The notes below the pieces were generated by a model, which ran no database searches, was not told the DNA's origin, and saw nothing but the letters and a program-made list of their open reading frames with translations. Positions 3,503 through 17,679 of a stretch of 20,154 bases of DNA are shown here, in pieces; position 1 is the first letter of the stretch, and each line of letters starts with the position of its first letter. Made by a program: the position numbers and the translations under genes. Origin of the DNA: Candidatus Fraserbacteria bacterium (lineage in GTDB: Bacteria; Bipolaricaulota; Bipolaricaulia; RBG-16-55-9); NCBI GenBank assembly GCA_037442925.1, contig JBBIPG010000041.1, forward strand, positions 1-20,154, written 5' to 3'.

Positions 3503-4603
3503 TTATACCCTTCCCCTCAGGATCTGGACAATGCGCTCTGCCGCCCGGCCATCGCCATAGGGATTACCCGGACCTGCCATCTTCGCATAGGCTATTGGGT
3601 CTTCCAGAAGCGTGCACGTCTCTCGTACGATGCGCTCTGTAGCTGTGCCGACGAGCTTAGCCACCCCCCGTTCGACGCCCTCCGGTCGCTCTGTGGTCTC
3701 ACGCAACACCAAAAGAGGCTTGCCGAACGAAGGAGCTTCCTCTTGCACTCCTCCAGAGTCCGTCAAGATGAGATACGCTTGCTCCATCAACTTGAGAAAT
3801 GGCAGATACTCCAGGGGTTCCAGTAAATGGACACGCTCGATTCCATCTAGAATGCGATGGACCGGCTCACGCACCGGAGGGCTTAAATGAACGGGATAGA
3901 CGATCTCCACCTCGGGTCGGTGCTCCACGATCTCTTTTAATGCGTGACAGATCGCTTCCAATCGATCCCCAAAGCTCTCCCGCCGATGGGCCGTCACCAG
4001 AAGCAAGCGATGGTCTTGCGGTATCGTGATCGGGGAATCCACATCGTGAAACCTCTTTTCCTGCAAGATGATGTGTAGGGCGTCCACTATCGTATTGCCC
4101 GTGAGGTGGATCTTCTTGGGGGGAATGCCCTCGGCGAGGAGGCTCTGCCGGGCACGCACTGTAGGAGCGAAGAGCCAATCGGCCAGGTGATCCGTCAGCC
4201 GTCTATTCATCTCCTCTGGGAAGGGGTGGTGCTTGTCATACGTTCTAAGACCCGCCTCTACATGAGCGATGGGAATGTGCTCGTAAAAAGCAGCCAGGGT
4301 TGCAGCAAAGGTTGTTGTGGTGTCCCCTTGGACGATGAGGGCCTTGGGGCGCTCTCTGCGCAAGACTTCCCTCAACCCGACGAGCACTTCGGTTGTGATA
4401 TGATATAGATCCTGGGAAGCTCTCATGATCGCCAGGTTATAATCAACACGGATATCAAAGAACTCGATGAAGGGATCGAGCATTTCGCGATGCTGCCCCG
4501 TGATGCAGACCTTGTACTTAATCCCTTGGCGCTCAAGCTCTCTGACGACCGGAGCCAACTTGATGGCCTCCGGCCGAGTTCCAAAGACCATTAGGATCGC
4601 CAA
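3503..4603 (-). CDS. wecB: UDP-N-acetylglucosamine 2-epimerase (non-hydrolysing)
   Basis: GTRPEAIKLAP, TGQHREML, VQGDTTT, HVEAGLRT, PFPEEMNR, TDSGGVQEEAP, TERPEG, NPYGDG. TTG start. Confidence 0.96.
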   Translation of the reverse strand: MAILMVFGTRPEAIKLAPVVRELERQGIKYKVCITGQHREMLDPFIEFFDIRVDYNLAIMRASQDLYHITTEVLVGLREVLRRERPKALIVQGDTTTTFAATLAAFYEHIPIAHVEAGLRTYDKHHPFPEEMNRRLTDHLADWLFAPTVRARQSLLAEGIPPKKIHLTGNTIVDALHIILQEKRFHDVDSPITIPQDHRLLLVTAHRRESFGDRLEAICHALKEIVEHRPEVEIVYPVHLSPPVREPVHRILDGIERVHLLEPLEYLPFLKLMEQAYLILTDSGGVQEEAPSFGKPLLVLRETTERPEGVERGVAKLVGTATERIVRETCTLLEDPIAYAKMAGPGNPYGDGRAAERIVQILRGRV

Positions 4604-4710: not shown

Positions 4711-5748
4711 ATGAGTAATCTCGAGCGTTGGCTGGCGTTTCTTCTGGTGCTGCTCCTAGGGATACTGTTAGGGCAAAGGCATCAAGGTCCGGAACCGCTG
4801 AAGACCACGAACCTACAGCGAGGGATCAACTTCGTCGCATACGAACCAGAGCAATATCGTCTCCCCTCCATTGAGGAGGACCTAAAGCACCTGAAATCTC
4901 TCGGGGTTAACTGGGTTGCAGTCGTAGTCACCTGGTATCAGTCTGAACTCTCGTCCACGGTGATTGCACCAGTTCCAGAGCGCTCAGCTGAGGATGAGGA
5001 TGTCGTGAAATTGCTCCGCTATCTGCACAAACTGGACATGAACGCCTTCCTGCGACCGATGGTGGATGTAAGCGATGGCCATTGGCGCGGCGAGATCGAG
5101 TTCTCTTCTGAAGCCGACTGGGCTGCGTGGTTTCAGAGCTATGAGGCGTTTCTCATGCGTTATGCGGAGCGGGCGACCCGTGAGGGAGTGGATCTCTTCT
5201 CCGTGGGCGTGGAACTGGAGGGGACGGTGCAACGGGAACGCGAGTGGCGCCAGCTGATCGGGCGCGTGCGCCGTGTGTTTGCAGGCCCACTGCTCTACTC
5301 CGCCAACTGGGATGGCTATCAGAATGTCCCCTTTTGGGATGCGCTCGATTACGTGGGGATTGATGCCTACTTCGAGTTGAATACAGATCCGGATTCGAAG
5401 CTCACTCCCGATGTTCTGGCCGCGGCTTGGAGCCCGTGGGTGGAGCAATTGGACGCGTTCGCAGCGGGGGTGAGCCAGCCGATCGTGTTCACGGAGATCG
5501 GCGCGCGTAGCGTGCAGGGCACATCCCGTCGCCCCTGGGACTGGCTTAGGGAAGCTCCCATTTCTCTCGAAGAACAGGCAAACTACTATGAAGCGGCATT
5601 TCAGGTCTTCTGGGGACGCCCTTGGCTGGCCGGTCTCTACTGGTGGACTTGGCTGCCCGATCCAAAACGGGGTGGAGCAGACGACGATGGGTACTCGCCC
5701 CGAGGCAAGCCCGCCGAAGAGATCCTCAAATCTTGGTATTCTGGGTGA
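4711..5748 (+). CDS. Glycoside hydrolase family 113 (beta-mannanase-like TIM barrel), N-terminally anchored/secreted
   Basis: LGVNWVAV, LRPMVD..DGHWRGEI, WFQSY, GVEL (acid/base Glu), YSANWD, FWDALDYVGIDAYF, FTEIG (nucleophile Glu). N-terminal hydrophobic helix. Confidence 0.88.
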   Translation: MSNLERWLAFLLVLLLGILLGQRHQGPEPLKTTNLQRGINFVAYEPEQYRLPSIEEDLKHLKSLGVNWVAVVVTWYQSELSSTVIAPVPERSAEDEDVVKLLRYLHKLDMNAFLRPMVDVSDGHWRGEIEFSSEADWAAWFQSYEAFLMRYAERATREGVDLFSVGVELEGTVQREREWRQLIGRVRRVFAGPLLYSANWDGYQNVPFWDALDYVGIDAYFELNTDPDSKLTPDVLAAAWSPWVEQLDAFAAGVSQPIVFTEIGARSVQGTSRRPWDWLREAPISLEEQANYYEAAFQVFWGRPWLAGLYWWTWLPDPKRGGADDDGYSPRGKPAEEILKSWYSG

Positions 5749-5753
5749 TTCCC

Positions 5754-5782
5754 TTGAGAGAGTGGGGCATTTCGGTTATCTT
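5754..5782 (+). promoter_or_regulatory. Possible sigma70-type promoter for the second GH113 gene
   Basis: TTGAGA (5754-5759), 17-nt spacer, TATCTT (5777-5782). Confidence 0.4.
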
Positions 5783-5848
5783 TCCCTCAGCGAAAAATCA
5801 CTGCGCTTGAGTGTCTCGATGACAGGCAAAAATAAAAAAGGAGGGCCT

Positions 5849-6928
5849 ATGTGTAAGGAACGGGTGAACCTCGCACGTTTGACCTTAGCCATCACGCTTC
5901 TTATGGCAAGCACCTTAGGGGGAGCAGCGGTCGCTACTAGTCAAGCAACGTCTTCCGCGAACCCACCCTTCGTGCGAGCCGTCTGGTACACGACGGATGA
6001 CCCCAGTCGCTACTCTTCCCGGATCGTAGCCGACGATCTTGCCTTTCTGAAGGAGAAACTTTGCCCAACTCACATCTTGATCAAGGCCTTCGTCTATCAA
6101 GAGGGCAAAGATTCTGTCGATCCTAAGATCGATCCTCAGCGTACCCTCTCAGACGACGCCCTGCGTCAAATCGTCGCTCAAATTCATCAGGTAGGAATGG
6201 GTGTGGTCTTCTTGCCCGTCCTCTTTGTGGACGATGGAACGTGGGAAGGAGCCATCACGCCGTCGGATGTGGATGCGTGGTTCTCCCATTGGCTGGATAT
6301 AGTGGCTCATTATGCGGATCTTGCCGAGGAGACCAGCATAGAGATCTTGCTCATTGGCTCTGAGATGGTCACCCTCCGAGACTACCACGACCACTGGCTT
6401 AGGGTGATCGAGGCCGCGCGACAACGCTATCAAGGCTTACTCGGTTACTCGGAGAACTGGTGGTTTGATGAGGCCTTCTACCAAAGTGTCTTAGCCATGC
6501 AGCAGTGGGCCGAGCTCGACTATATCGGTGTTACAAACTATTTCGAGCTGACCGACAAAACAGATCCCAGTCTATCGGAGTTGGAGTCCGCCTGGCGCCG
6601 CAACCGAAATGGTCGCAACGTGCTCGACGACTTAGATAGGCTGAGTAGCCGATACGGCAATAAGCCCATTGTCTTCTGGGAGTTTGGCTACCAGAGCAAG
6701 GATGGCACCAACATCGAACCCTGGAATTTCCTGCGGGAAGCCGATCCCGATCCCCAAGAGCAAGCAGATGCCTACCAAGCCTACTTCAATGTCTTTTCGT
6801 CCTTTCCCTGGTGGAGTGGACAAGGCATCTTCGCAGAGCAGGTAGGGCTGCCCATGGATGCCTTCGGGTATGGTGTGCTCGGCAAGCCATCAGAGTTGGT
6901 GATCGCACAACAGGCGTGCAGCCCGTGA
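5849..6928 (+). CDS. Second, divergent glycoside hydrolase family 113 protein, secreted
   Basis: SD AAGGAGG precedes ATG 5849. Signal peptide. Motifs DDGTWEGAI, IGSEM, YSENWW, LDYIGVTNYFEL, FWEFGYQS and QEQADAYQA. Confidence 0.82.
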   Translation: MCKERVNLARLTLAITLLMASTLGGAAVATSQATSSANPPFVRAVWYTTDDPSRYSSRIVADDLAFLKEKLCPTHILIKAFVYQEGKDSVDPKIDPQRTLSDDALRQIVAQIHQVGMGVVFLPVLFVDDGTWEGAITPSDVDAWFSHWLDIVAHYADLAEETSIEILLIGSEMVTLRDYHDHWLRVIEAARQRYQGLLGYSENWWFDEAFYQSVLAMQQWAELDYIGVTNYFELTDKTDPSLSELESAWRRNRNGRNVLDDLDRLSSRYGNKPIVFWEFGYQSKDGTNIEPWNFLREADPDPQEQADAYQAYFNVFSSFPWWSGQGIFAEQVGLPMDAFGYGVLGKPSELVIAQQACSP

Positions 6929-6934
6929 TTGAGC

Positions 6935-8545
6935 TTAGCCCATCCGTCCTTCCTGGAGGGCCATCTGCATTAATCGCTGGGCATCTGCGAAACTGACGAG
7001 ACCATCGCCGTCAAAGTCGTAATAGCGACTGAACTTCTGCACCGGCTCTGAGTCATAATGAAACGCAAGTAGGATCGCATCATCTAGGGTGAGCTGCCCA
7101 TTGCCATCGACGTCTTCGAACAACCCATCCCCATCGAGGTCTTGGGGCGAGCGCAACGCATCGCCCAGCAGAGGAAGCACGATAGCCAAAGTGAACCCTT
7201 GAAGGGCTGCTTGGATAGGTCGACCTGCATCGTCAGTGAGGACTTTGACTTCCATGCTGAACTCGACATGCCCTGGCTGGAGTGTGGTCAAGGCCATCTG
7301 TGCCAGAATGATAGACTCCGCTCCAGGTCGAATCCCGTTGCGGAAATCCACAGCCCGAATCTCCATTACTCCCTCCGAATGCTGCATCACTCGGACAAAA
7401 CGGGGATCGAGCCCCGGGACCGTTGCACCGTCGAGCTGGACAAGCGCGGGGTCTGAAACGCGCACAATCACGGCGTAGCGTTGTAGTCCTTGAGGAGCCT
7501 TGGTTAGGATGAGATCTACAATTCCTTCCGCTTGCGGCATCAAGCTGGGAGGACCTGCGAGAAGAAGGGTCGTCTCGGAGGAGGGCTGGGGCAGCGGTGG
7601 CTCTGGCGTCTTTGATCCTGCGACTGCAATTTGTCCCGCGATGATGACGGGGGTCACGCTGTTTCCTGAATCGTCGATGTAGGCGACGACCTCAATGAGG
7701 AGCTGGGTGCGGCCTGCTTGCAGCCCTTCTAGGGTTAGCTGGGCCAGGATTTGATCGCGCGCGCCCGCCTCCAGTTGATGCGTCAGTAAGTCAAGCAGTC
7801 GTATTCGAATCTTGTCCGCGCCCTGCTCGAGAATCATAAACGCGTCTCCCGAAAGCACGCCCGGCGCGATCGCGGTAAATCGAGCAACAGCGGGATCCTG
7901 CATGGAAAAGACGATGTCAGCACTCTGCAGGCCCTGAGGAGCCTGGCCCAGGATGATGGCACCCTGCGTTTGCTCCCCCACTTTGAGCGTTACATCTCCT
8001 GCGCGCAAGATCGTGGGTTCTTCTTGGGCCATCTTTCCCGCAAAGACAAGCACGGTGGCAACGGATGGGATCGACACCTCTTGGCCATAGTCATCCTGGA
8101 GCCGTGCAATTCGTAAAGACGCGGTCGTCCGCGCTTCGACCATGGCTTTGACTCTGATGCGCACAAGCGGGATCTGATGAACACCTGGGCGCAGGAGATT
8201 GAAGAGATCCACGATGCGTAACCCAACGGACTTGTCTGTCTGTTTTGTCACGCGGGTCGGCCAAGCCCCCAATGGCTCCAGCTGAAAAATCTGGACAAGG
8301 CCTGTGGTATCGAAGTTGATCTCCAAGTCGACGGTTCTTAAGCCATTGGAGGCATCCTGTAGAACTACAATCAACATCACTGTGGTGGAATCCTCTGGCA
8401 GTGGAGTGGCTTCTAAGAGAAAAGAGGTTCCTTGGTCCGTAGAGGTCTGAAGCGCTAGAGCGGGCACATGGATGCTCAGAAGAAGCATGAGCCAACTGAG
8501 GGCCACCCCGAGTCCCTGCCGAGTCCACGACGCCTTCATGTTCAC
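6935..8545 (-). CDS. Secreted protein with three cohesin-like repeats and a C-terminal dockerin (archaeal-type mini-scaffoldin)
   Basis: Signal peptide, then three ~125-aa repeats sharing A(S/P)xGL...(V/L)D(L/F)...G...DDxG. Pro-rich linker KTPEPPLPQP. C-terminal paired Ca-binding loops PQDLDGDGLFEDVDGNGQLTLDD...YDFDGDGLVSFAD. Start is GTG 8545 or ATG 8539. Confidence 0.8.
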   Translation of the reverse strand: MNMKASWTRQGLGVALSWLMLLLSIHVPALALQTSTDQGTSFLLEATPLPEDSTTVMLIVVLQDASNGLRTVDLEINFDTTGLVQIFQLEPLGAWPTRVTKQTDKSVGLRIVDLFNLLRPGVHQIPLVRIRVKAMVEARTTASLRIARLQDDYGQEVSIPSVATVLVFAGKMAQEEPTILRAGDVTLKVGEQTQGAIILGQAPQGLQSADIVFSMQDPAVARFTAIAPGVLSGDAFMILEQGADKIRIRLLDLLTHQLEAGARDQILAQLTLEGLQAGRTQLLIEVVAYIDDSGNSVTPVIIAGQIAVAGSKTPEPPLPQPSSETTLLLAGPPSLMPQAEGIVDLILTKAPQGLQRYAVIVRVSDPALVQLDGATVPGLDPRFVRVMQHSEGVMEIRAVDFRNGIRPGAESIILAQMALTTLQPGHVEFSMEVKVLTDDAGRPIQAALQGFTLAIVLPLLGDALRSPQDLDGDGLFEDVDGNGQLTLDDAILLAFHYDSEPVQKFSRYYDFDGDGLVSFADAQRLMQMALQEGRMG

Positions 8546-8635: not shown

Positions 8636-9910
8636 CTAGCTGTACTGACGTGCCGTCTTCGCCCATTGTGGCCTTCGCTGAAAGAGGATGTTCGTCCAGG
8701 CCAGCAGCAGCAAGGGAACCCAGTGATATGTGTACAGGGTCACCAGTATGATGGCCAGAGGCATTTGATACCAGGGTGTCTTGATCTCCCGAAGTCCCAG
8801 AAAGATCAAAGGAAAGAAACTGAAGGAATTGGCAATCAGCAGGGGGAGTGGAAAGCTATTTTGTACACCGAGTACTCCCCACTGGGCTAGGGCAAAGAGA
8901 CCGAAGGTGAATAAGACAGCGACGGGGACGATCCAGAAACTCAAATAATAGTGAAGATCGAACTTCCTCAGCCAGGGGATGTTCGCTCGCAGCAGACGTC
9001 TGCTCATGATGTAGTTCATAAAAACCTGTAAAGTCCCCCAGGCCCAGCGGTGGCGCTGGCGCAAGAGGGCTCTTAAGGATTCCACACCCTCTTGTTCGAC
9101 CTGGCGATCGAGAAAGCGAATCACTCCGCCCGTCTCATGGATGCGTATGCTCAGTTCCAGATCCTCCGTAAGACTCCCCGGAGTCCAGATGTGCCCATAC
9201 TCCCTTGCCAGAGCCATCAAGGTGCTGGCGCGCACGAATTGTCCGTTGCCTCCCAGAGCAACGGCACCGGTTGTCCCATCCCGAACCCATTGCGCGATGT
9301 AACAGAAAGTTGCAAACTCGATGTCTTGCATGCGCGCTAGCCAATGGTGTCGATTGGCGATACGGACTCCACACTGCACTGCAGCAACCTTGGAATCCAA
9401 GAACAACTCTGCCACACGCTGGACCAGGTCGATCTCTACAGGGCGGCCATCCGCATCGAAGACGCCGATGACCCAGCGCTTAGAGTTCCGCTCGGGAAAA
9501 CGATCCAAGAGATGGTAGATGCCGCTGTTGAGCGCCTCCGCCTTGCCCAGCCGAGCGTGAGGGAGTTCGCGTGCCAGTAGATAGATGCGTTCATCGGCCT
9601 GACAGAGTTCAGATGCGATCTGGCGGGTGTCATCTTGGCTGGCATCGTCGATGATCAGGATCTCCAGACGACCTACATAGGGTTGCCTGAGGAGCGCTTG
9701 CACGGTGTTCTGGAGCACCTGGCCTTCATTGAGCGCCGGGATCATGATGGTGATGACGGGAAGGTTTTCATTCGGGGAGTCATGGCCACCATTACTGCCA
9801 GATGCCAAGTTGCTGGAACGGCGTAAAAGCAGCGTGGAGATCGTGAGGAACAAGTTATAAACCAAGCAGTAGATGATGAAGAACCAAGTGAAGATATCCG
9901 TAGTGACCAC
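8636..9910 (-). CDS. Processive GT2 glycosyltransferase (PgaC/IcaA/cellulose-synthase-like polysaccharide synthase)
   Basis: IPALNE, DDASQD, GKAEALN, VFDADG, GGNG, TEDLE and QRHRW (D,D,D,QxxRW). One N-terminal and about three C-terminal TM helices. SD GGAGGAGG precedes GTG. Confidence 0.92.
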   Translation of the reverse strand: MVTTDIFTWFFIIYCLVYNLFLTISTLLLRRSSNLASGSNGGHDSPNENLPVITIMIPALNEGQVLQNTVQALLRQPYVGRLEILIIDDASQDDTRQIASELCQADERIYLLARELPHARLGKAEALNSGIYHLLDRFPERNSKRWVIGVFDADGRPVEIDLVQRVAELFLDSKVAAVQCGVRIANRHHWLARMQDIEFATFCYIAQWVRDGTTGAVALGGNGQFVRASTLMALAREYGHIWTPGSLTEDLELSIRIHETGGVIRFLDRQVEQEGVESLRALLRQRHRWAWGTLQVFMNYIMSRRLLRANIPWLRKFDLHYYLSFWIVPVAVLFTFGLFALAQWGVLGVQNSFPLPLLIANSFSFFPLIFLGLREIKTPWYQMPLAIILVTLYTYHWVPLLLLAWTNILFQRRPQWAKTARQYS

Positions 9911-9966: not shown

Positions 9967-11850
9967 TTACTGTTGTTTGATGAACGTCTTGGGGGCAAGC
10001 CCCAAACGACTCAAGTACGCAGAAAGATTCATGAAACTCCACCCTTGCCCCTTCAAGCCCTCGATGAGTTGACCGAGTCGATCCACTCCCAAAACGGGAT
10101 GATAGAAAAAAGAGGCCAAGGCACCGTACTTCAATCCCGCCAGTAGGCGCGCTCTTGCTAGTATACGCTGGATATCCTCATCAGCGGATTCGGCCTGCAC
10201 GAAGCCCAAATCGGTGGGAACATATAGGTTGTTCTTTAATTCGACCACGAAGGGCACGATTTCTAAATCCAACCCCCAGCGTGTGGGGTCCTCATAGATG
10301 ACAGCGAAAAATTGCTCAAAGACCTGATATGCCTCGTCGCCCGCGGCATAGTGAGGGGTCTCCCAAGCCACGACCGATTGAGCTAATCCTGCCAGTGAGA
10401 TCTCGGTCAACGCCTCCAGCACACGGCGCCTGGCGTACTCCGCATCGCCGATGGGCATACCCCTCTGTGGGTCCCAAAACTCGAAATCGACCGCGGTTTC
10501 CCCTCGATTCTGATGCGTCAAACCGTGAACGACGACCTCACCACCCTTGAGCAACGCCTGCTTGACCATGAGGCGGAAGTCTGAGTCCGTGCTGAGCCTC
10601 GCCCGCACCCCGCCAGCGTCCGCGAAGACTGGGATGACTGCCAAGCTGAAGGGAACCTGGGCGTCTCCCAAATAGCCCACCACGGACAGGAGATCACTGC
10701 GCTGGGTCTTCGCATGGATGTCCTCGAGGCGTATGAGCGCGATCTGACCCCGATCGATACCGTAGACCTCATTCAAAACGTCCAGGAAGACCAGATGAGC
10801 ACCGAAGGGCGAGAGGAATGCCGTGGGGTGGAAGCCAACAAAGTAGAAGTACTCACCATCGTCCGGATGGTCCGCATGCTTAGCGCTGACAACAAGGGGC
10901 ACCGGCTGGCCGTCTTCCGTGATGACAGCGCGTGCACGAGCCAATTGAGGATTGCTGATCTTGGCCAGCATGAGTGCATTGTTTTGCAGGGTATACGCCG
11001 TGTCTGAATAGAGGTATATAAGCTCCCGAAGTTGCGAAGGAATTGTGCGATCCAGCGCTACACCGACTGCCTGCTCGGCTTCCGTCTGGGCTCGTTCCAA
11101 TTGGTACCCGATCCAGACGACCTTCTTCTTGGTGATCCCCTCTCCGTGGAAGACGTCGTCGATGAAGGACTGGGGAGGGGATTGGTTAGGGTCTAAGCCA
11201 TAATAGAGGATTACATCGTAGCCTTGATACATGTCTGCCCGATATTCCTGAAAGAGCCCTTGCTGGTGGATGACTCGTACCGTCGTCTGGTAGTAGGCCT
11301 CAAGCCAGGTGGCGAGCTTGACGACAAAGGGTTCCGTGAACTCTTGGCGTGGTGAGGTCACGAGGAGTGTCTTGGTGCGCGGGTTCTGACCCCACAGGCT
11401 GCGCACAACAAAACCGGTTGTGCCCTCACACAAGATCGTGCCGTCTGGCCCTTGGAGTTGCGCATACACACGATATGACCCTGTGACGCCGAAGATGTCC
11501 TGAGAGATGTCGAGCGTGTAGATCACGCCTTGCCACTGGAAGCTGCCTTCTAGGTTGATGGTGGGCTGGCTTTGCACACTCAGGTTGGTCCCATCTTGCT
11601 GGTCGATCTGGACGATGAGTTTCGCATTCTGGATGGCGACGGTCTCCGCGACTTGTAGGAACATCTGGATCTTCACCGGGGGGCCGGGTGCCACATACTC
11701 TTGGCTGTCGGTAAACACATCCAGCGCACAGAGGGGAGCCCCTCCTTGCAGGTCGAGTGGCCCCATCCACATCAGCGCGAACAGCAAGACGGAAAGAATA
11801 GCCTTGCGATCGCTAGATGTCAGAATCACCTTTATATGTAGACACTGCAC
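9967..11850 (-). CDS. DUF2334-family secreted polysaccharide deacetylase with N-terminal Ig-like and central alpha/beta domains
   Basis: IRLEDIH, SLAVIP, VVHGLTH, DFEFWD, WETPHY and SFFYHP. N-terminal hydrophobic signal segment. Confidence 0.82.
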   Translation of the reverse strand: MQCLHIKVILTSSDRKAILSVLLFALMWMGPLDLQGGAPLCALDVFTDSQEYVAPGPPVKIQMFLQVAETVAIQNAKLIVQIDQQDGTNLSVQSQPTINLEGSFQWQGVIYTLDISQDIFGVTGSYRVYAQLQGPDGTILCEGTTGFVVRSLWGQNPRTKTLLVTSPRQEFTEPFVVKLATWLEAYYQTTVRVIHQQGLFQEYRADMYQGYDVILYYGLDPNQSPPQSFIDDVFHGEGITKKKVVWIGYQLERAQTEAEQAVGVALDRTIPSQLRELIYLYSDTAYTLQNNALMLAKISNPQLARARAVITEDGQPVPLVVSAKHADHPDDGEYFYFVGFHPTAFLSPFGAHLVFLDVLNEVYGIDRGQIALIRLEDIHAKTQRSDLLSVVGYLGDAQVPFSLAVIPVFADAGGVRARLSTDSDFRLMVKQALLKGGEVVVHGLTHQNRGETAVDFEFWDPQRGMPIGDAEYARRRVLEALTEISLAGLAQSVVAWETPHYAAGDEAYQVFEQFFAVIYEDPTRWGLDLEIVPFVVELKNNLYVPTDLGFVQAESADEDIQRILARARLLAGLKYGALASFFYHPVLGVDRLGQLIEGLKGQGWSFMNLSAYLSRLGLAPKTFIKQQ

Positions 11851-11870
11851 GCACCCGCCACCCTCTATTC

Positions 11871-11956
11871 GGGTGCACCGGCAGCCCGGCTACCTTGGTG
11901 AAAGGTCCGTAGCTTTGCGTCCCACCCTTGCGAGTGGTTTGCCCTTATCAGCGCCC
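11871..11956 (-). ncRNA. c-di-GMP-I (GEMM-I) riboswitch aptamer
   Basis: Minus strand reads GGGCGCUGAUAA-GGGCAAA-CCACUC-GCAA-GGGUGG-GACGCAAAGCUACGGACCUUUCACCAAGGUAGCCGGGCUGCCGGUGCACCC. This gives the GGCAAA, P2 with GNRA loop, GACGCAAAGC and P3 ...AGCCGGGCUGCC elements of the GEMM-I consensus. It lies between a promoter and the first gene of the run. Confidence 0.93.
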
Positions 11957-11964
11957 TCCAGTTT

Positions 11965-11983
11965 TTTGACTACAGTAGTCAAA
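11965..11983. promoter_or_regulatory. Perfect palindrome overlapping the predicted +1 (candidate repressor operator)
   Basis: TTTGACTAC-A-GTAGTCAAA: 9-bp arms, 1-nt centre, 4 nt downstream of the -10 box. Confidence 0.6.
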
Positions 11984-11987
11984 TGCA

Positions 11988-12016
11988 ATTTTAGCCTAGG
12001 AAGAGGTCTCTGTCAA
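11988..12016 (-). promoter_or_regulatory. sigma70-type promoter for the riboswitch/DUF2334-GT2 transcript
   Basis: Minus strand TTGACA (12016-12011), 17-nt spacer, TAAAAT (11993-11988). Confidence 0.8.
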
Positions 12017-12044
12017 CTCCAGCAGTGCAGGGCTAAATGATCAC

Positions 12045-12092
12045 CCAGCTAGCTAGACAATCAATTAGCTGATTGGACAATTATCTAGCTAA
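12045..12092. repeat. Phased YYRR tetramer array upstream of parA (candidate centromere/operator)
   Basis: CCAG CTAG CTAG ACAA TCAA TTAG CTGA TTGG ACAA TTAT CTAG CTAA. There is also a 20-bp period: AGCT at 12047/12067/12087 and GACAAT at 12056/12076. Confidence 0.65.
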
Positions 12093-12143
12093 CAGGGGAC
12101 CGTTGTCCTTCCTTGACCCGTCGTCCGTGTGTAAGAGTGTCTC

Positions 12144-12917
12144 ATGCGCGTGATTGCCATTGCCAATCAAAAAGGCGGAACAGGCAAGACGACCACGGCC
12201 GTCAACCTGGCCGCCGGTCTGGCCTTGCTCAAACGAAAAGTGCTCCTCATCGATGCCGATCCCCAGGCACATAGCTCCAAACACTTCGGGATTGAAAACC
12301 CAGAGGTGACGATCGAGCACGTGATGTCCGGGAAAGTTCCTGCTCCCAAGGCCACATACGAAACGGACATCGAGAGGCTCTTCCTCATTCCTAGTTCTCT
12401 GGAACTGAGCCACTACGAGGCACGGCTCGTCACGGAGGTGGGACGCGAGACCCTGCTGAGAAACGCACTTGACCCCCTGAAGGGCCACGTGGAGTTCATC
12501 TTGATCGACTGTCCGCCGAGCTTGGATGTGATGACCATCAATGCGCTTTCTGCGGCCAAGGAGGTCTTCATCGTCTCCCAGAGCGAGTATCTATCGCTCG
12601 ATGGGGTAAGGCAGCTGAGCGATACCATAGAGATCGTCAAGAGGAGAATCAATCCGGCGCTCCAGATCGGGGGCATCATTCTTACCATGCATAACGACCG
12701 GATTATTCTCAGCCAAGAAGTGTCTCAGTTGCTCGAAACGTCTTTCCCTGGGAAAGTGTTCCAGACGAAGATCCATCGCAATGTTCGGTTGGCAGAAGCC
12801 CCCAGCCGAAGGCAGCCCATACAACGATATGCCCCCAATTCCCGTGGCGCACGGGATTATAATGCGCTAGCCAAGGAGGTCTTAAGCCGATGGCGACGAA
12901 ACGGAAGAGCATCGTAG
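12144..12917 (+). CDS. parA: ParA/Soj-family Walker-A ATPase
   Basis: NQKGGTGKTTT (deviant Walker A), IDADPQ, LIDCPP, IHRNVRLAEAPS. No N-terminal HTH. Confidence 0.95.
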   Translation: MRVIAIANQKGGTGKTTTAVNLAAGLALLKRKVLLIDADPQAHSSKHFGIENPEVTIEHVMSGKVPAPKATYETDIERLFLIPSSLELSHYEARLVTEVGRETLLRNALDPLKGHVEFILIDCPPSLDVMTINALSAAKEVFIVSQSEYLSLDGVRQLSDTIEIVKRRINPALQIGGIILTMHNDRIILSQEVSQLLETSFPGKVFQTKIHRNVRLAEAPSRRQPIQRYAPNSRGARDYNALAKEVLSRWRRNGRAS

Positions 12918-13162
12918 AAGAGAACCCTCTGGAGAGGCCGATGCAGCGCACGCAAGAATTGCCAGGGGATCAAGTGGTGATCCATAGTTCGAGCGCTGTA
13001 GAAGCTAGAAAAAGAAAACTCTTTGCATATAAGCTTCCGATGTCCTTGGGGATCAAGTTCAAGCTCTACTGCCACGCAAGAGGCAAGACGGCGGAAGAGA
13101 CGCTTCAAGAGTTGCTCACAGAATTCCTGAAAGACAAGACAATCGATCCCTTTGCGGGTTAG
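12890..13162 (+). CDS. Small ParA partner, probable ribbon-helix-helix (ParG-like) DNA-binding protein
   Basis: SD AAGGAGG (12873-12879). Overlaps the parA 3' end. Basic, disordered-looking N-terminal tail (MATKRKS), then strand KLFAYKL-P, helix MSLGIKFKLYCHARG and helix TAEETLQELLTEFL. Confidence 0.72.
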   Translation: MATKRKSIVEENPLERPMQRTQELPGDQVVIHSSSAVEARKRKLFAYKLPMSLGIKFKLYCHARGKTAEETLQELLTEFLKDKTIDPFAG

Positions 13163-13311: not shown

Positions 13312-14676
13312 ATGGCGGCAGTCAAAGTGGGGGATACGGTGATTATGGCAAAGGCTGTCTACGGAACCATCCGGGAGAAGAACAAGCTTCGCGTGGCGGA
13401 CCGTCCTGTCCACGACTGGTATCGGTTCGTGCAGTCTTTCCCACCCCATCTTGTACGTGGCTATCTCGAACGGTTCGGCATCACGCGAGGTCATTGCGTC
13501 TTAGATCCATTCTGCGGCAGCGGTACTACGTTGGTTGAGTGCAAGAAGCTCGGCATTGCGAGCATTGGGATTGAAGCCAACCCCATGGCTCACTTTGCCA
13601 GCCACGTGAAGGTGGATTGGAGTGTCGATCCTGATGGTCTACTTGATCATGCTTCAGAGATTGCCAAGCGTGCTTCACAAAGGCTCTCCATGGATGGCAT
13701 CGAGGATGGGGAAGCCCTACCGTTGTTTTACAACCATCAAAAGAAAACCGCTACTCTTCGGACGCTGCCACCTGAAACTCAAAAGCTCATTCTAAAGAAC
13801 TCAATCAGCCCCTTGCCCCTGCATAAGGTGCTCGTAGTACTAGAGACTTTGGAGGAGCACAGCGATAGTCGGTTCGATCCCCATGAGCGGCTGGCCCTGG
13901 CAAAAACGATCGTTTTTAGCGCTAGCAATTTGAACTTTGGGCCGGAAGTCGGTGTTGGCTCAGCTAAGTCGGACGCCCCGGTGATCGCAACGTGGTTGAA
14001 GAACATTCAGGCAATGGTAGCTGATCTACGTGAGCTACACTCGAAAAACAACACCAAAGCCGTCATCCACCAAGCCGACTCGCGCTATCTCACCAATGTC
14101 CTAGAGCCGTACTCAGTGGATGCGGTGATCACATCACCGCCGTACCCCAATGAAAAGGACTACACCAGGACAACTCGCCTTGAATCGGTTTTGCTCGGGT
14201 TTATCCGCAACAAGCAAGATCTACGATCGCTCAAGCAAGCTTTGGTGCGATCCAACACTCGCGGCGTCTATAAGAACGACTCAGATGACGTCCTCGTTGC
14301 TAGCCATAGGGAGATTCAACATATCGCGGACACCATCGAAAAACGACGGGTCGAGCTGGGCAAGACCTCCGGATTCGAACGACTCTACGCCAGAGTAACA
14401 AAGCTTTATTTCGGAGGCATGGCAAGGCATCTCTCGGAGCTTCGCACCATACTTCGCCCCGGTGCCCAGCTCGCCTACGTTGTGGGGGACCAAGCATCAT
14501 ACTTGCGTGTAATGATCCGCACCGGACACCTGCTGGCCGACATCGCCCGATCTTTGGGCTACGAAGTCTCCGGAGTCGACCTATTCCGCACGCGACTGGC
14601 AACAGCGACGAAAGAGCAGCTTCGAGAGGAGGTTGTTCTCCTCCGCTGGCCGGGAAGCGCACCGGGTCACGCCTGA
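13312..14676 (+). CDS. Site-specific DNA methyltransferase, probably N4-cytosine, alpha-type motif order
   Basis: Motif I LDPFCGSGTT precedes motif IV ITSPPY. Also HDWYRF..SFPP and YVVGD. Start may be ATG 13345. Confidence 0.9.
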   Translation: MAAVKVGDTVIMAKAVYGTIREKNKLRVADRPVHDWYRFVQSFPPHLVRGYLERFGITRGHCVLDPFCGSGTTLVECKKLGIASIGIEANPMAHFASHVKVDWSVDPDGLLDHASEIAKRASQRLSMDGIEDGEALPLFYNHQKKTATLRTLPPETQKLILKNSISPLPLHKVLVVLETLEEHSDSRFDPHERLALAKTIVFSASNLNFGPEVGVGSAKSDAPVIATWLKNIQAMVADLRELHSKNNTKAVIHQADSRYLTNVLEPYSVDAVITSPPYPNEKDYTRTTRLESVLLGFIRNKQDLRSLKQALVRSNTRGVYKNDSDDVLVASHREIQHIADTIEKRRVELGKTSGFERLYARVTKLYFGGMARHLSELRTILRPGAQLAYVVGDQASYLRVMIRTGHLLADIARSLGYEVSGVDLFRTRLATATKEQLREEVVLLRWPGSAPGHA

Positions 14677-14680
14677 GATC

Positions 14681-15478
14681 ATGAAAAGGAAGAGCATATA
14701 CTCGACAATTATTGAAAAAATCTTCCGCTCGAAATTTAAGCCTGGAATGCAGGAGTTTGAGTTCGCGCGCGCAGATATTGAGAAATTCAGCAAACAGCTC
14801 AGAATCGATTTACCGAAGAATCTCGGCGATCTGGTTTACAGCTTTCGTTATCGCAAATCTCTTCCCGACAGCATTCAAGCAACAGCTGGCGAAGGTAAAG
14901 CGTGGATCATTCGTGGAGCCGGTCGTTCTAGATACCGCTTTGTTTTGGTCCCCAACAGACCCCTTGTTCCAAATGAAGACTTAGCGACTACGAAAGTGCC
15001 AGATGCAACGCCTGGTATCGTTGCCAAGTATGCCTTCAACGATGAGCAGGCGCTGCTTGCTAAGGTGCGGTACAACCGCCTTGTGGACATCTTCACTGGC
15101 GTCACCTGCTACTCCCTTCAGAATCACCTCCGCACTACTGTACCCAACATTGGGCAAGTCGAGACGGATGAAATTTATGTTGGTGTTGATAAGAAGGGTG
15201 TCCACTACGTATTCCCAGTTCAAGCGAAAGGCGGCACTGACAAATTGAGCGCTGTGCAGATCGAACAAGATTTCGCCGTCTGTGCTCACAAGTTTCCGGC
15301 GTTGATTTGCCGCCCTATTGGCGCTCAGTTTATACAACATGATTTGATCGCGCTGTTTGAGTTTGAGGAAACTGAAGACGGTGTCAAGATTGCTTCGGAA
15401 AAACACTACGAATTCGTATCACCCGAAGAAGTGACTGAAGCCGACTTAGCCCTCTACCGTAAGCGTACATCTCCGTGA
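14681..15478 (+). CDS. Putative type II restriction endonuclease (PD-(D/E)xK superfamily)
   Basis: ATG lies 4 nt after the MTase stop. Catalytic-like DEQALL...QVETDEIYVG...PVQAK...VQIEQD. Confidence 0.72.
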   Translation: MKRKSIYSTIIEKIFRSKFKPGMQEFEFARADIEKFSKQLRIDLPKNLGDLVYSFRYRKSLPDSIQATAGEGKAWIIRGAGRSRYRFVLVPNRPLVPNEDLATTKVPDATPGIVAKYAFNDEQALLAKVRYNRLVDIFTGVTCYSLQNHLRTTVPNIGQVETDEIYVGVDKKGVHYVFPVQAKGGTDKLSAVQIEQDFAVCAHKFPALICRPIGAQFIQHDLIALFEFEETEDGVKIASEKHYEFVSPEEVTEADLALYRKRTSP

Positions 15479-17500: not shown

Positions 17501-17578
17501 GGCGGCGTAGCTCATCCGGTCTAGAGCGTCCGTCTCATAAGCGGAAGGTAGTGGGTTCGAGTCCCACCGCCGCCACCA
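17501..17578 (+). tRNA. tRNA-Met(CAT), probably elongator
   Basis: Acceptor GGCGGCG/CGCCGCC plus ACCA. Anticodon arm TCCGT-CTCATAA-GCGGA (CAT 17536-17538). T arm GTGGG-TTCGAGT-CCCAC. G1:C72 is paired. Confidence 0.93.
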
Positions 17579-17603
17579 GCAAGCTTCGCTTGACGTCCAG
17601 ATT

Positions 17604-17679
17604 GGGGACGTAGCTCAGTTGGGAGAGCGCTGCGTTCGCAACGCAGAGGTCGCCGGTTCGAATCCGGTCGTCTCCACCA
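17604..17679 (+). tRNA. tRNA-Ala(CGC)
   Basis: Acceptor GGGGACG/CGTCTCC with G3:U70, plus ACCA. Anticodon arm CTGCG-TTCGCAA-CGCAG (CGC 17637-17639). 76 nt. Confidence 0.97.

Follow-up and report, generated by a model that had tools for sequence, protein, structure and literature searches.

The reference for class I cyclic di-guanosine monophosphate riboswitches (c-di-GMP-I; Rfam family RF01051) is Vc2 of Vibrio cholerae, for which the roles of G20, A47, C92 and the C44:G83 pair are described (PMC5888326, PMC6140456, PMC11705072) and which is reported as a translational OFF switch (PMC9262584). The element described here lies on the reverse strand of a 20,154-nucleotide (nt) stretch from a Candidatus Fraserbacteria bacterium of the phylum Bipolaricaulota (contig JBBIPG010000041.1, positions 1–20,154; the whole stretch is referred to as the window), in the leader of a gene for a DUF2334 protein. 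Shared with Vc2 are the three-stem junction, the G20/A47/C92 set, the C44:G83 pair and a tetraloop on P2. Vc2 combines a GAAA loop with a receptor motif, whereas the window aptamer has GCAA and a plain helical receptor; translation would be the target in both, with the window element predicted to turn it ON. Its aptamer shows no difference from the GYRA subtype of c-di-GMP-I, which is defined, as 'type II', by a GYRA tetraloop and the lack of an 11-nt receptor (PMC11218506).

Membership of the class does not reveal switching direction (PMC6366702). Bc2 and Bc3-5 of Bacillus thuringiensis and Vc1 of V. cholerae gbpA respond to c-di-GMP by switching an adhesion or surface gene on, the direction that is predicted for the window element. 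In Bc3-5 a competing helix claims the 3′ part of the aptamer without ligand, as predicted here (PMC4759541). Bc2 and Bc3-5 act through terminators, whereas the window element would use a 24-nt segment that occludes the Shine–Dalgarno (SD) sequence and start codon; Vc1 is described as without a visible terminator or anti-SD (PMC4744006). Further c-di-GMP and riboswitch literature was compared (PMC6274999, PMC10043782, PMC12452182, PMC9481103).

The window aptamer is almost certainly a genuine c-di-GMP-I element, and folding models suggest that c-di-GMP binding probably switches translation of the first gene ON. As an aptamer it is a further example of a well-studied class and no surprise to a specialist. 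Validated c-di-GMP riboswitches are few so far, and because the ON examples of class I compared here work through terminators or in a way that is unknown, a translational ON platform as compact as 24 nt would be useful as a test case and as a component for biosensors. No literature pairing Bipolaricaulota with a riboswitch was found, nor any for Acetothermia among the matches listed, in a search that left subscription papers and supplements outside. Rfam annotates such matches automatically, and the supplements of riboswitch surveys may list this one or related ones.

The aptamer

Searching with the RF01051 covariance model gave 68.4 bits (11953–11877, minus strand; gathering cut-off 35), which bears out the class proposed by a first-pass annotation made from the letters alone. 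The G and C that it had placed at the equivalents of G20 and C92, and its GCAA tetraloop, are present (Table 1), and the G supports its choice of c-di-GMP as ligand. The Rfam scan, which detects one aptamer in the window, ranks the variant family RF03167 (c-di-GMP-I-GGC) 1.3 bits higher, at 69.7 bits (11952–11876, minus strand; cut-off 59). This top label is misleading, because the canonical G20/A47/C92 set is present with A rather than G at position 47; the variant was ruled out on A11916, where its consensus has G.

On all features tested, each read from the sequence, the element belongs to canonical c-di-GMP-I, GYRA subtype: it has the GCAA loop, no 11-nt receptor and the two C-G pairs of the docking site (11905:11893 and 11904:11894), stacked within a distal P3 that reads ACCUU/UCACC/AAGGU. 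P1 comprises 6 bp, two of them wobbles, and the C44:G83 pair (Vc2 numbering) is C11919:G11890. The first-pass annotation had described a very short P3 without the 11-nt receptor; the receptor is absent and the distal part is short, but P3 as a whole has a normal 12 bp. The tandem C-G receptor that it had named is there, although among 13 aligned orthologous aptamers only the second pair is invariant (13/13), the first being C-G in 5/13. GYAA loops go with C-G receptors and GYGA loops with U-A receptors; no such covariation was seen in the orthologue alignment (A2). Docking of a P2 tetraloop in the GYRA/helix manner is described in PMC7913685. The G20A mutant, put forward earlier as a control, would be no clean null, since Vc2 with this change retains c-di-GMP binding, at 53 nM (PMC6140456); a G83C-type change leaves Vc2 with no binding (PMC11705072).

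Table 1 Features of the riboswitch locus and its operon (window coordinates).
Feature	Position	Strand	Basis
Sigma-70-type promoter, TTGACA-17-TAAAAT, 11/12 matches	11988..12016	-	Motif scan
Perfect 9-bp palindrome at predicted transcript 5′ end (5′ hairpin or operator)	11965..11983		Inverted-repeat scan; hairpin in most folds
c-di-GMP-I aptamer, GYRA/helix subtype	11875..11954	-	P1 11954-11949/11880-11875, P2 11942-11917, P3 11914-11883
G20 equivalent (c-di-GMP selectivity)	11943	-	Alignment; role from PMC6140456
GCAA tetraloop of P2; predicted docking on C-G pairs 11905:11893 and 11904:11894	11928..11931	-	Sequence, alignment; docking mode from PMC7913685
A47 equivalent, canonical; G in RF03167 consensus	11916	-	Model alignment
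Loop L3 (UCACC); complements GGUGG of SD; part of long ligand-free helix	11897..11901	-	Folding
C92 equivalent	11881	-	Alignment
5′ arm of 7-bp hairpin / anti-SD, 2 nt common to P1	11870..11876	-	Inverted repeat, shuffles, folding
Shine–Dalgarno region (AGAGGGUGG)	11858..11866	-	Pairing with genome's own 16S 3′ tail
3′ arm of 7-bp hairpin = SD-to-start spacer	11851..11857	-	Inverted repeat
GUG start codon	11848..11850	-	Open reading frame list; AUG there in X4
627-residue DUF2334 protein, signal-peptide-like N terminus	9967..11850	-	Family scan, structure prediction
GT2 glycosyltransferase, processive motifs DAD, TED, QRHRW; without PilZ match	8636..9910	-	Family scan
536-residue likely secreted protein, C-terminal EF-hand-like match below cut-off	6935..8545	-	Family scan
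Two GH113 glycoside hydrolases, convergent	4711..6928	+	Family scan
wecB, UDP-GlcNAc 2-epimerase	3503..4603	-	Family scan

Conservation of the aptamer fold

Across the 13 aligned orthologous aptamers, 93.4% of cells are paired and 14 of 27 pairs have changed on both sides, a level of pairing matched by none of 500 shuffles and standing against 34–44% in slid controls. This points to selection on the fold. This alignment takes in 13 of the 17 leaders considered below (four with long insertions were omitted), its members are non-independent kin and its structure is that of the family consensus. The C44:G83 pair is kept in all 13, and the G20/A47/C92 triplet in all 17 leaders, the window's included.

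A closer comparison is offered by X4, a relative's contig from another study that differs from the window at 25 letters over 11500–11993, with 10 gaps (about 5% divergence). X4 turns three wobbles into Watson–Crick pairs (P1 G·U to G-C and U·G to U-A, and P2 U·G to C-G; 11877, 11879 and 11933). At 11850 it reads AUG instead of GUG, and it has A at position 91. Some folds show a P1 extended by G11956/G11955 pairing with C11873/C11872, but this is not relied on, because X4 changes 11956.

The leader and its expression platform

The order of promoter, aptamer, SD and GUG is established, and the aptamer is thus a 5′ leader element; we infer that transcription starts near 11982. X4 retains the −10 box, with TTGACT 17 nt upstream across a different spacer, and its match ends at 11993. 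The 22 nt before 11850 form a duplex of −9.1 kcal/mol with the 3′ tail of the genome's own 16S RNA, roughly the genome average (45% of 1303 long open reading frames (ORFs) are equally strong). Together with the AUG of X4, this supports the GUG start proposed earlier; the in-frame starts at 11829, 11787 and 11772 were rejected, having SD duplexes of −3.2 kcal/mol or weaker. Terminator-like sites (a stem plus a U tract) number zero in 11700–12200, as the first reading had it.

That reading had also placed an SD-occluding hairpin behind the aptamer. The inverted repeat 11876–11870/11857–11851 is perfect, and a stem of at least 7 bp was found in 146 and 39 of 20,000 shuffles under two nulls (a post hoc test). 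This hairpin has the SD in its loop and the SD-to-start spacer in its 3′ arm; both arms are identical in X4, which is weak evidence at 5% divergence. The alternative CACCC:GGGUG pairing is likewise real, at −7.2 kcal/mol alone. The claimed overlap with P1 exists, but it amounts to only 2 nt for the hairpin (G11876, C11875) and 1 nt for CACCC, and partial coexistence is possible.

When the growing transcript is folded at 37 °C, each length being taken at equilibrium, P1 has a probability of about 0.6 without ligand while the 3′ end lies at 11870–11865. CACCC:GGGUG reaches 0.96–0.98 at 11857–11854, P1 is near 0 from 11857 onward, and the 7-bp hairpin stands at 0.78 at 11851. In longer transcripts, J2/3, the 5′ strand of P3 and L3 are predicted to pair, in a long helix, with the region that runs from the SD through the spacer and GUG to the first codons. 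This P3/L3:SD helix dominates the full-length ligand-free leader at 37 °C, where the 7-bp hairpin accounts for 0.4–1% of the ensemble, against 13–30% at 55–65 °C. The local hairpins are predicted as the OFF folds formed first during transcription; once equilibrium is reached at 37 °C, the OFF fold would be the long helix. Opening of the SD-to-start region would cost about 14 kcal/mol in the ligand-free leader versus 5–10 in the binding-competent fold, and the gap of 9 kcal/mol was reached by 3/120 and 1/120 shuffles; with P3 held folded at 37 °C, the costs are 9.1–13.5 ligand-free versus 3.8–8.6 bound. In each of the three predicted ligand-free folds the initiation region is less exposed than in the bound fold, which makes a translational ON switch the best reading.

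In the mechanism we favour, the aptamer would fold with P1 once RNA polymerase has passed about 11870, and could then catch c-di-GMP. Without ligand, the emerging SD would be caught first by CACCC and next by the 7-bp hairpin, before the leader relaxes into the long helix of about 19 bp; P1 is predicted to be absent from all three ligand-free ensembles. Ligand would keep P1 and P3 in place, leaving only a weak residual hairpin of 4–5 bp, and a 30S subunit could load. Control would be largely kinetic, a reading favoured because the bound fold pays 5.5–10 kcal/mol. Untranslated mRNA would presumably also be cut short by Rho, which the genome encodes, carrying the effect to the GT2 gene. A matrix-polysaccharide target is consistent with ON logic in established c-di-GMP biology, and the genome's one GGDEF protein, with the canonical Asp, and two HD_5 proteins speak for a supply of the ligand.

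Several results weigh against this mechanism. The direction of the opening gap is also ON in 106/120 and 86/120 shuffles, as forcing the aptamer fold biases the comparison of opening costs toward ON; the gap for the SD alone lies within the null (31/120 and 24/120 shuffles). In a test covering 12 of the 17 loci, complementarity between the aptamer and 90 nt downstream is no higher in the window than in shuffles (z=0.3, 27/100 shuffles as high). The ON call of the first-pass annotation is supported by the folding models and not by these shuffles or the 90-nt test. The bound fold costs 8–10 kcal/mol at equilibrium and 5.5–7.2 with P3 held, and 8–22% of the bound ensemble combines a 4-bp P1 with the entire 7-bp hairpin. 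By inspection of X4, pair by pair, two changes disrupt pairs in the long helix of the ligand-free state, and 11873–11865 (9 nt) is duplicated, which provides a second anti-SD copy outside P1; with the hairpin arms intact, what is conserved may be the local hairpins, and switching may be leaky. Among the orthologous leaders, the occlusion test described below is reversed in sign in 4/17 and uninformative in 4/17. Finally, the genome's only GGDEF protein, a putative cyclase, has Tyr at the catalytic Lys site of PleD, Lys332.

Alternative explanations

Leakiness is at the centre of the main rival, which we consider unlikely: the aptamer would bind c-di-GMP and the platform would switch little, P1 and the downstream hairpin coexisting. 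Such coexistence is what the 2-nt overlap and the residual hairpins of the bound fold allow; the SD-only gap and the P1-independent anti-SD of X4 point the same way, and class I members that do not respond are described, namely Bc1 (PMC11218506) and 5 of 16 riboswitches in Clostridioides difficile (PMC6366702). A working platform is argued for by the rarity of the 9 kcal/mol gap in the nulls, by the promoter, aptamer pairs and start that X4 conserves, and by the recurrence across the phylum of an SD behind the aptamer. Were the switch ON mainly through transcript length or stability, by Rho-dependent termination or RNase access, ribosome loading would be secondary. Rho is present, several orthologues have pyrimidine or U tracts after the anti-aptamer helix with the main gene 150–650 nt off, and Vc1 and Vc2 are described as without simple platforms (PMC4744006). 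This explanation is quite unlikely here, where P1 and the start are just 24 nt apart in a G-rich rather than C-rich segment and every predicted competing helix covers the SD or start.

An OFF switch would arise if bound P1 stacked on and stabilised the SD-proximal hairpin, or if L3 and the SD formed a pseudoknot in the bound state. L3 does complement GGUGG, the fold with both P1 and the hairpin lies just 0.9–1.6 kcal/mol above the bound ensemble, ViennaRNA cannot model pseudoknots and Vc2 itself is an OFF switch by description. We nevertheless regard an OFF switch as very unlikely: the ligand-free folds are far more occluded, a 5-nt loop is probably too tight for a 5-bp pseudoknot, and paralogous aptamers of the genome carry similar L3 loops, so that selection for pairing with the SD is not needed to explain L3. 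Another ligand, sensed by a c-di-GMP-I-GGC variant or a 3′3′-cyclic GMP–AMP (cGAMP) sensor, has hardly any probability. In its favour stand the higher RF03167 score and a SMODS-family nucleotidyltransferase in the genome, though split into two ORFs; the A at position 47 departs from the RF03167 consensus, and wild-type Vc2, which has G20, binds cGAMP only at 10 µM (PMC6140456). Hypr cGAMP synthases have Ser at the position of the canonical Asp (PMC6456294), and Asp is found in all 27 parsed GGDEF domains (27 of 31 loci could be parsed). Identity as GEMM-Ib, the 3′3′-cGAMP type, was rejected on G11943 in place of A20 and on the Asp, not the Hypr Ser, of the sole GGDEF protein of this 94%-complete genome. 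A translational ON switch responding to c-di-GMP remains our preferred reading.

Leaders of orthologous genes

Among 184 genomes from the phylum, 17 were found to carry the DUF2334 gene; a single-protein query gave no matches, and an alignment query retrieved the relatives. Upstream of the gene, 32 of 55 loci (a redundant set) have the aptamer, in 18 distinct sequences, from which L053, near-identical to L052, was dropped to give 17 leaders including the window's. The remaining loci have no upstream DNA or have lost the aptamer: L023 (~1460–1500) keeps only the aptamer 5′ half, fused to coding sequence, and in L029 (~1300–1400) the promoter and gene are present while the aptamer is missing.

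In the 16 relatives the main gene lies 150–650 nt downstream of the aptamer and has its own SD. An SD-like element is found 6–35 nt past C92, above shuffles in 12/17 leaders (the window itself is not, at 29/200), with a start codon behind it in 16/17. These starts open short ORFs, mostly of 17–62 codons, whose peptides are unlike each other. With 30 shuffles per leader, the site behind the aptamer is more occluded without ligand than in the nulls (at most 3/30) in 9/17 leaders, the window included, its site being taken 22 nt after C92, slightly 3′ of the preferred SD. Several leaders have an anti-aptamer helix followed by pyrimidine tracts. These mixed results indicate that the platform varies and that what recurs is a ribosome site behind the aptamer. 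Covariation between L3 and the SD, suggestive in L022, L024 and L025, was rejected as a general feature, as the aptamer segments engaged in ligand-free folds differ among the 17 leaders. No tight AUGA-type coupling of the upstream ORFs (uORFs) to the main gene was seen in the leaders.

A precedent for an SD and short ORF in a leader is the B12 riboswitch of Mycobacterium tuberculosis ppe2, which controls uORF translation (PMC11260477). That riboswitch has another ligand and turns OFF, and the uORFs here are predicted only and not conserved as peptides. Extended to the phylum, the riboswitch would gate a ribosome-binding site behind the aptamer, in most relatives that of a short leader ORF whose translation would license read-through to a novel de-N-acetylated exopolysaccharide operon 150–650 nt farther on, with the first gene fused directly onto the site in the lineage of the window; the element would belong to a regulon of 17 riboswitches supplied by one atypical diguanylate cyclase. 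We offer this reading tentatively and think it on the whole doubtful. Matrix synthesis would in that case be controlled by RNA alone, since no protein receptor for c-di-GMP was found in the operon.

A conserved palindrome TGT(A/G)AT-N4-ATTACA, likely to be a transcription-factor site, lies upstream of the promoter in L022, L028, L032, L037, L038, L040, L046, L052, L056, L066, L069 and L075; none was seen in the window.

The operon and neighbouring genes

The model of the DUF2334 protein (mean predicted local distance difference test score, pLDDT, 85.7) has a fold like that of the N-deacetylases NDST1, Agd3 and PelA, with template-modelling (TM) scores of 0.42 against Agd3 (6nwz) and 0.35 against PelA (9cgy) at about 10–12% identity; a sequence search of the PDB gave one weak match, to a CE4 enzyme. 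From its motifs, the GT2 protein is likely to be a polysaccharide synthase. Searched against NCBIfam it reached no family cut-off (PgaC_IcaA, 95 bits versus a cut-off of 422). The gene for the 536-residue protein is the probable third gene of the operon. GT2 and GH113 genes recur next to the DUF2334 gene in most relative loci, and wecB lies beside the cluster in 4 of 35 (redundant records).

On these models, the operon would make a de-N-acetylated exopolysaccharide. The synthase-dependent Pel, poly-N-acetylglucosamine (PNAG), Aspergillus galactosaminogalactan (GAG) and Listeria Pss systems likewise combine an Agd3/PelA-like deacetylase fold with a processive GT2 enzyme and nearby glycoside hydrolases; the likeness to Pss presumably extends to N-acetylmannosamine (ManNAc) and wecB. 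Membership of the Pel, PNAG or Pss systems would call for a family-specific synthase and a c-di-GMP receptor subunit, neither of which was found in the window cluster, and no c-di-GMP receptor domain was detected among the 18 window proteins scanned. The prediction is that, in an uncultured phylum, a new polysaccharide cluster is under the control of RNA and not of PilZ or PelD-type proteins.

Ahead of a divergent parA (12144–12917) and its 90-residue partner (12890–13162) is a cluster of inverted repeats at 12032–12097; these repeats and the palindrome at the predicted transcript 5′ end are possibly operator or partition sites. Farther along the window are a DNA methyltransferase with an unannotated 281-residue partner, restriction-modification-like (13312–15478), and two tRNA genes (17501–17676).

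c-di-GMP supply and other aptamers of the genome

The genome (2.07 Mb) has 17 RF01051 matches, and such matches occur in 39 of 41 related genomes. It encodes one GGDEF protein (L018:1414-3432) and two HD_5 proteins; the genome scan gave no match to EAL or PilZ. In 19 of the 27 parsed GGDEF domains of the phylum (L018, L076–L105), Phe or Tyr replaces the usual Lys before VND, with the GGDEF motif and the I-site kept. The split nucleotidyltransferase noted above is part of a locus resembling a cyclic-oligonucleotide-based antiphage signalling system (CBASS) on C70 (L108), where ORFs of 151 and 136 residues adjoin a patatin-like ORF (by eye).

Most of the 17 aptamers directly follow a TTGACA-type promoter, and two (C8, C36) precede proteins that are Crp/Fnr-like by eye. 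C21:16391-16465 (L012) is the sole aptamer to carry A20, which is the signature of GEMM-Ib (cGAMP), although the genome yielded no Hypr GGDEF. More unusual than the window's element are the leader ORFs of the relatives and the start codons that lie within other aptamers of the genome. In C40:8240-8330 (L002) and C58:880-971 (L005) the SD lies in L3 and the AUG in the 3′ strand of P3, inside the aptamer; the internal ORFs have 44 and 37 codons, and despite these different lengths the stop overlaps the main start by 4 nt in both, an arrangement that suggests OFF switches acting through translational coupling. C26:3447 is similar, its ORF stopping 12 nt ahead of the main start. C65:1391 (L003), C8:594 (L004), C36:11731 (L010), C18:25946 (L015) and C27:28469 (L017) have an internal SD and an AUG in frame with the downstream gene, so that the aptamer would encode the first residues of the protein; these too are predicted to be OFF switches. 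The aptamers of C18 and C27 are degenerate at the 3′ end.

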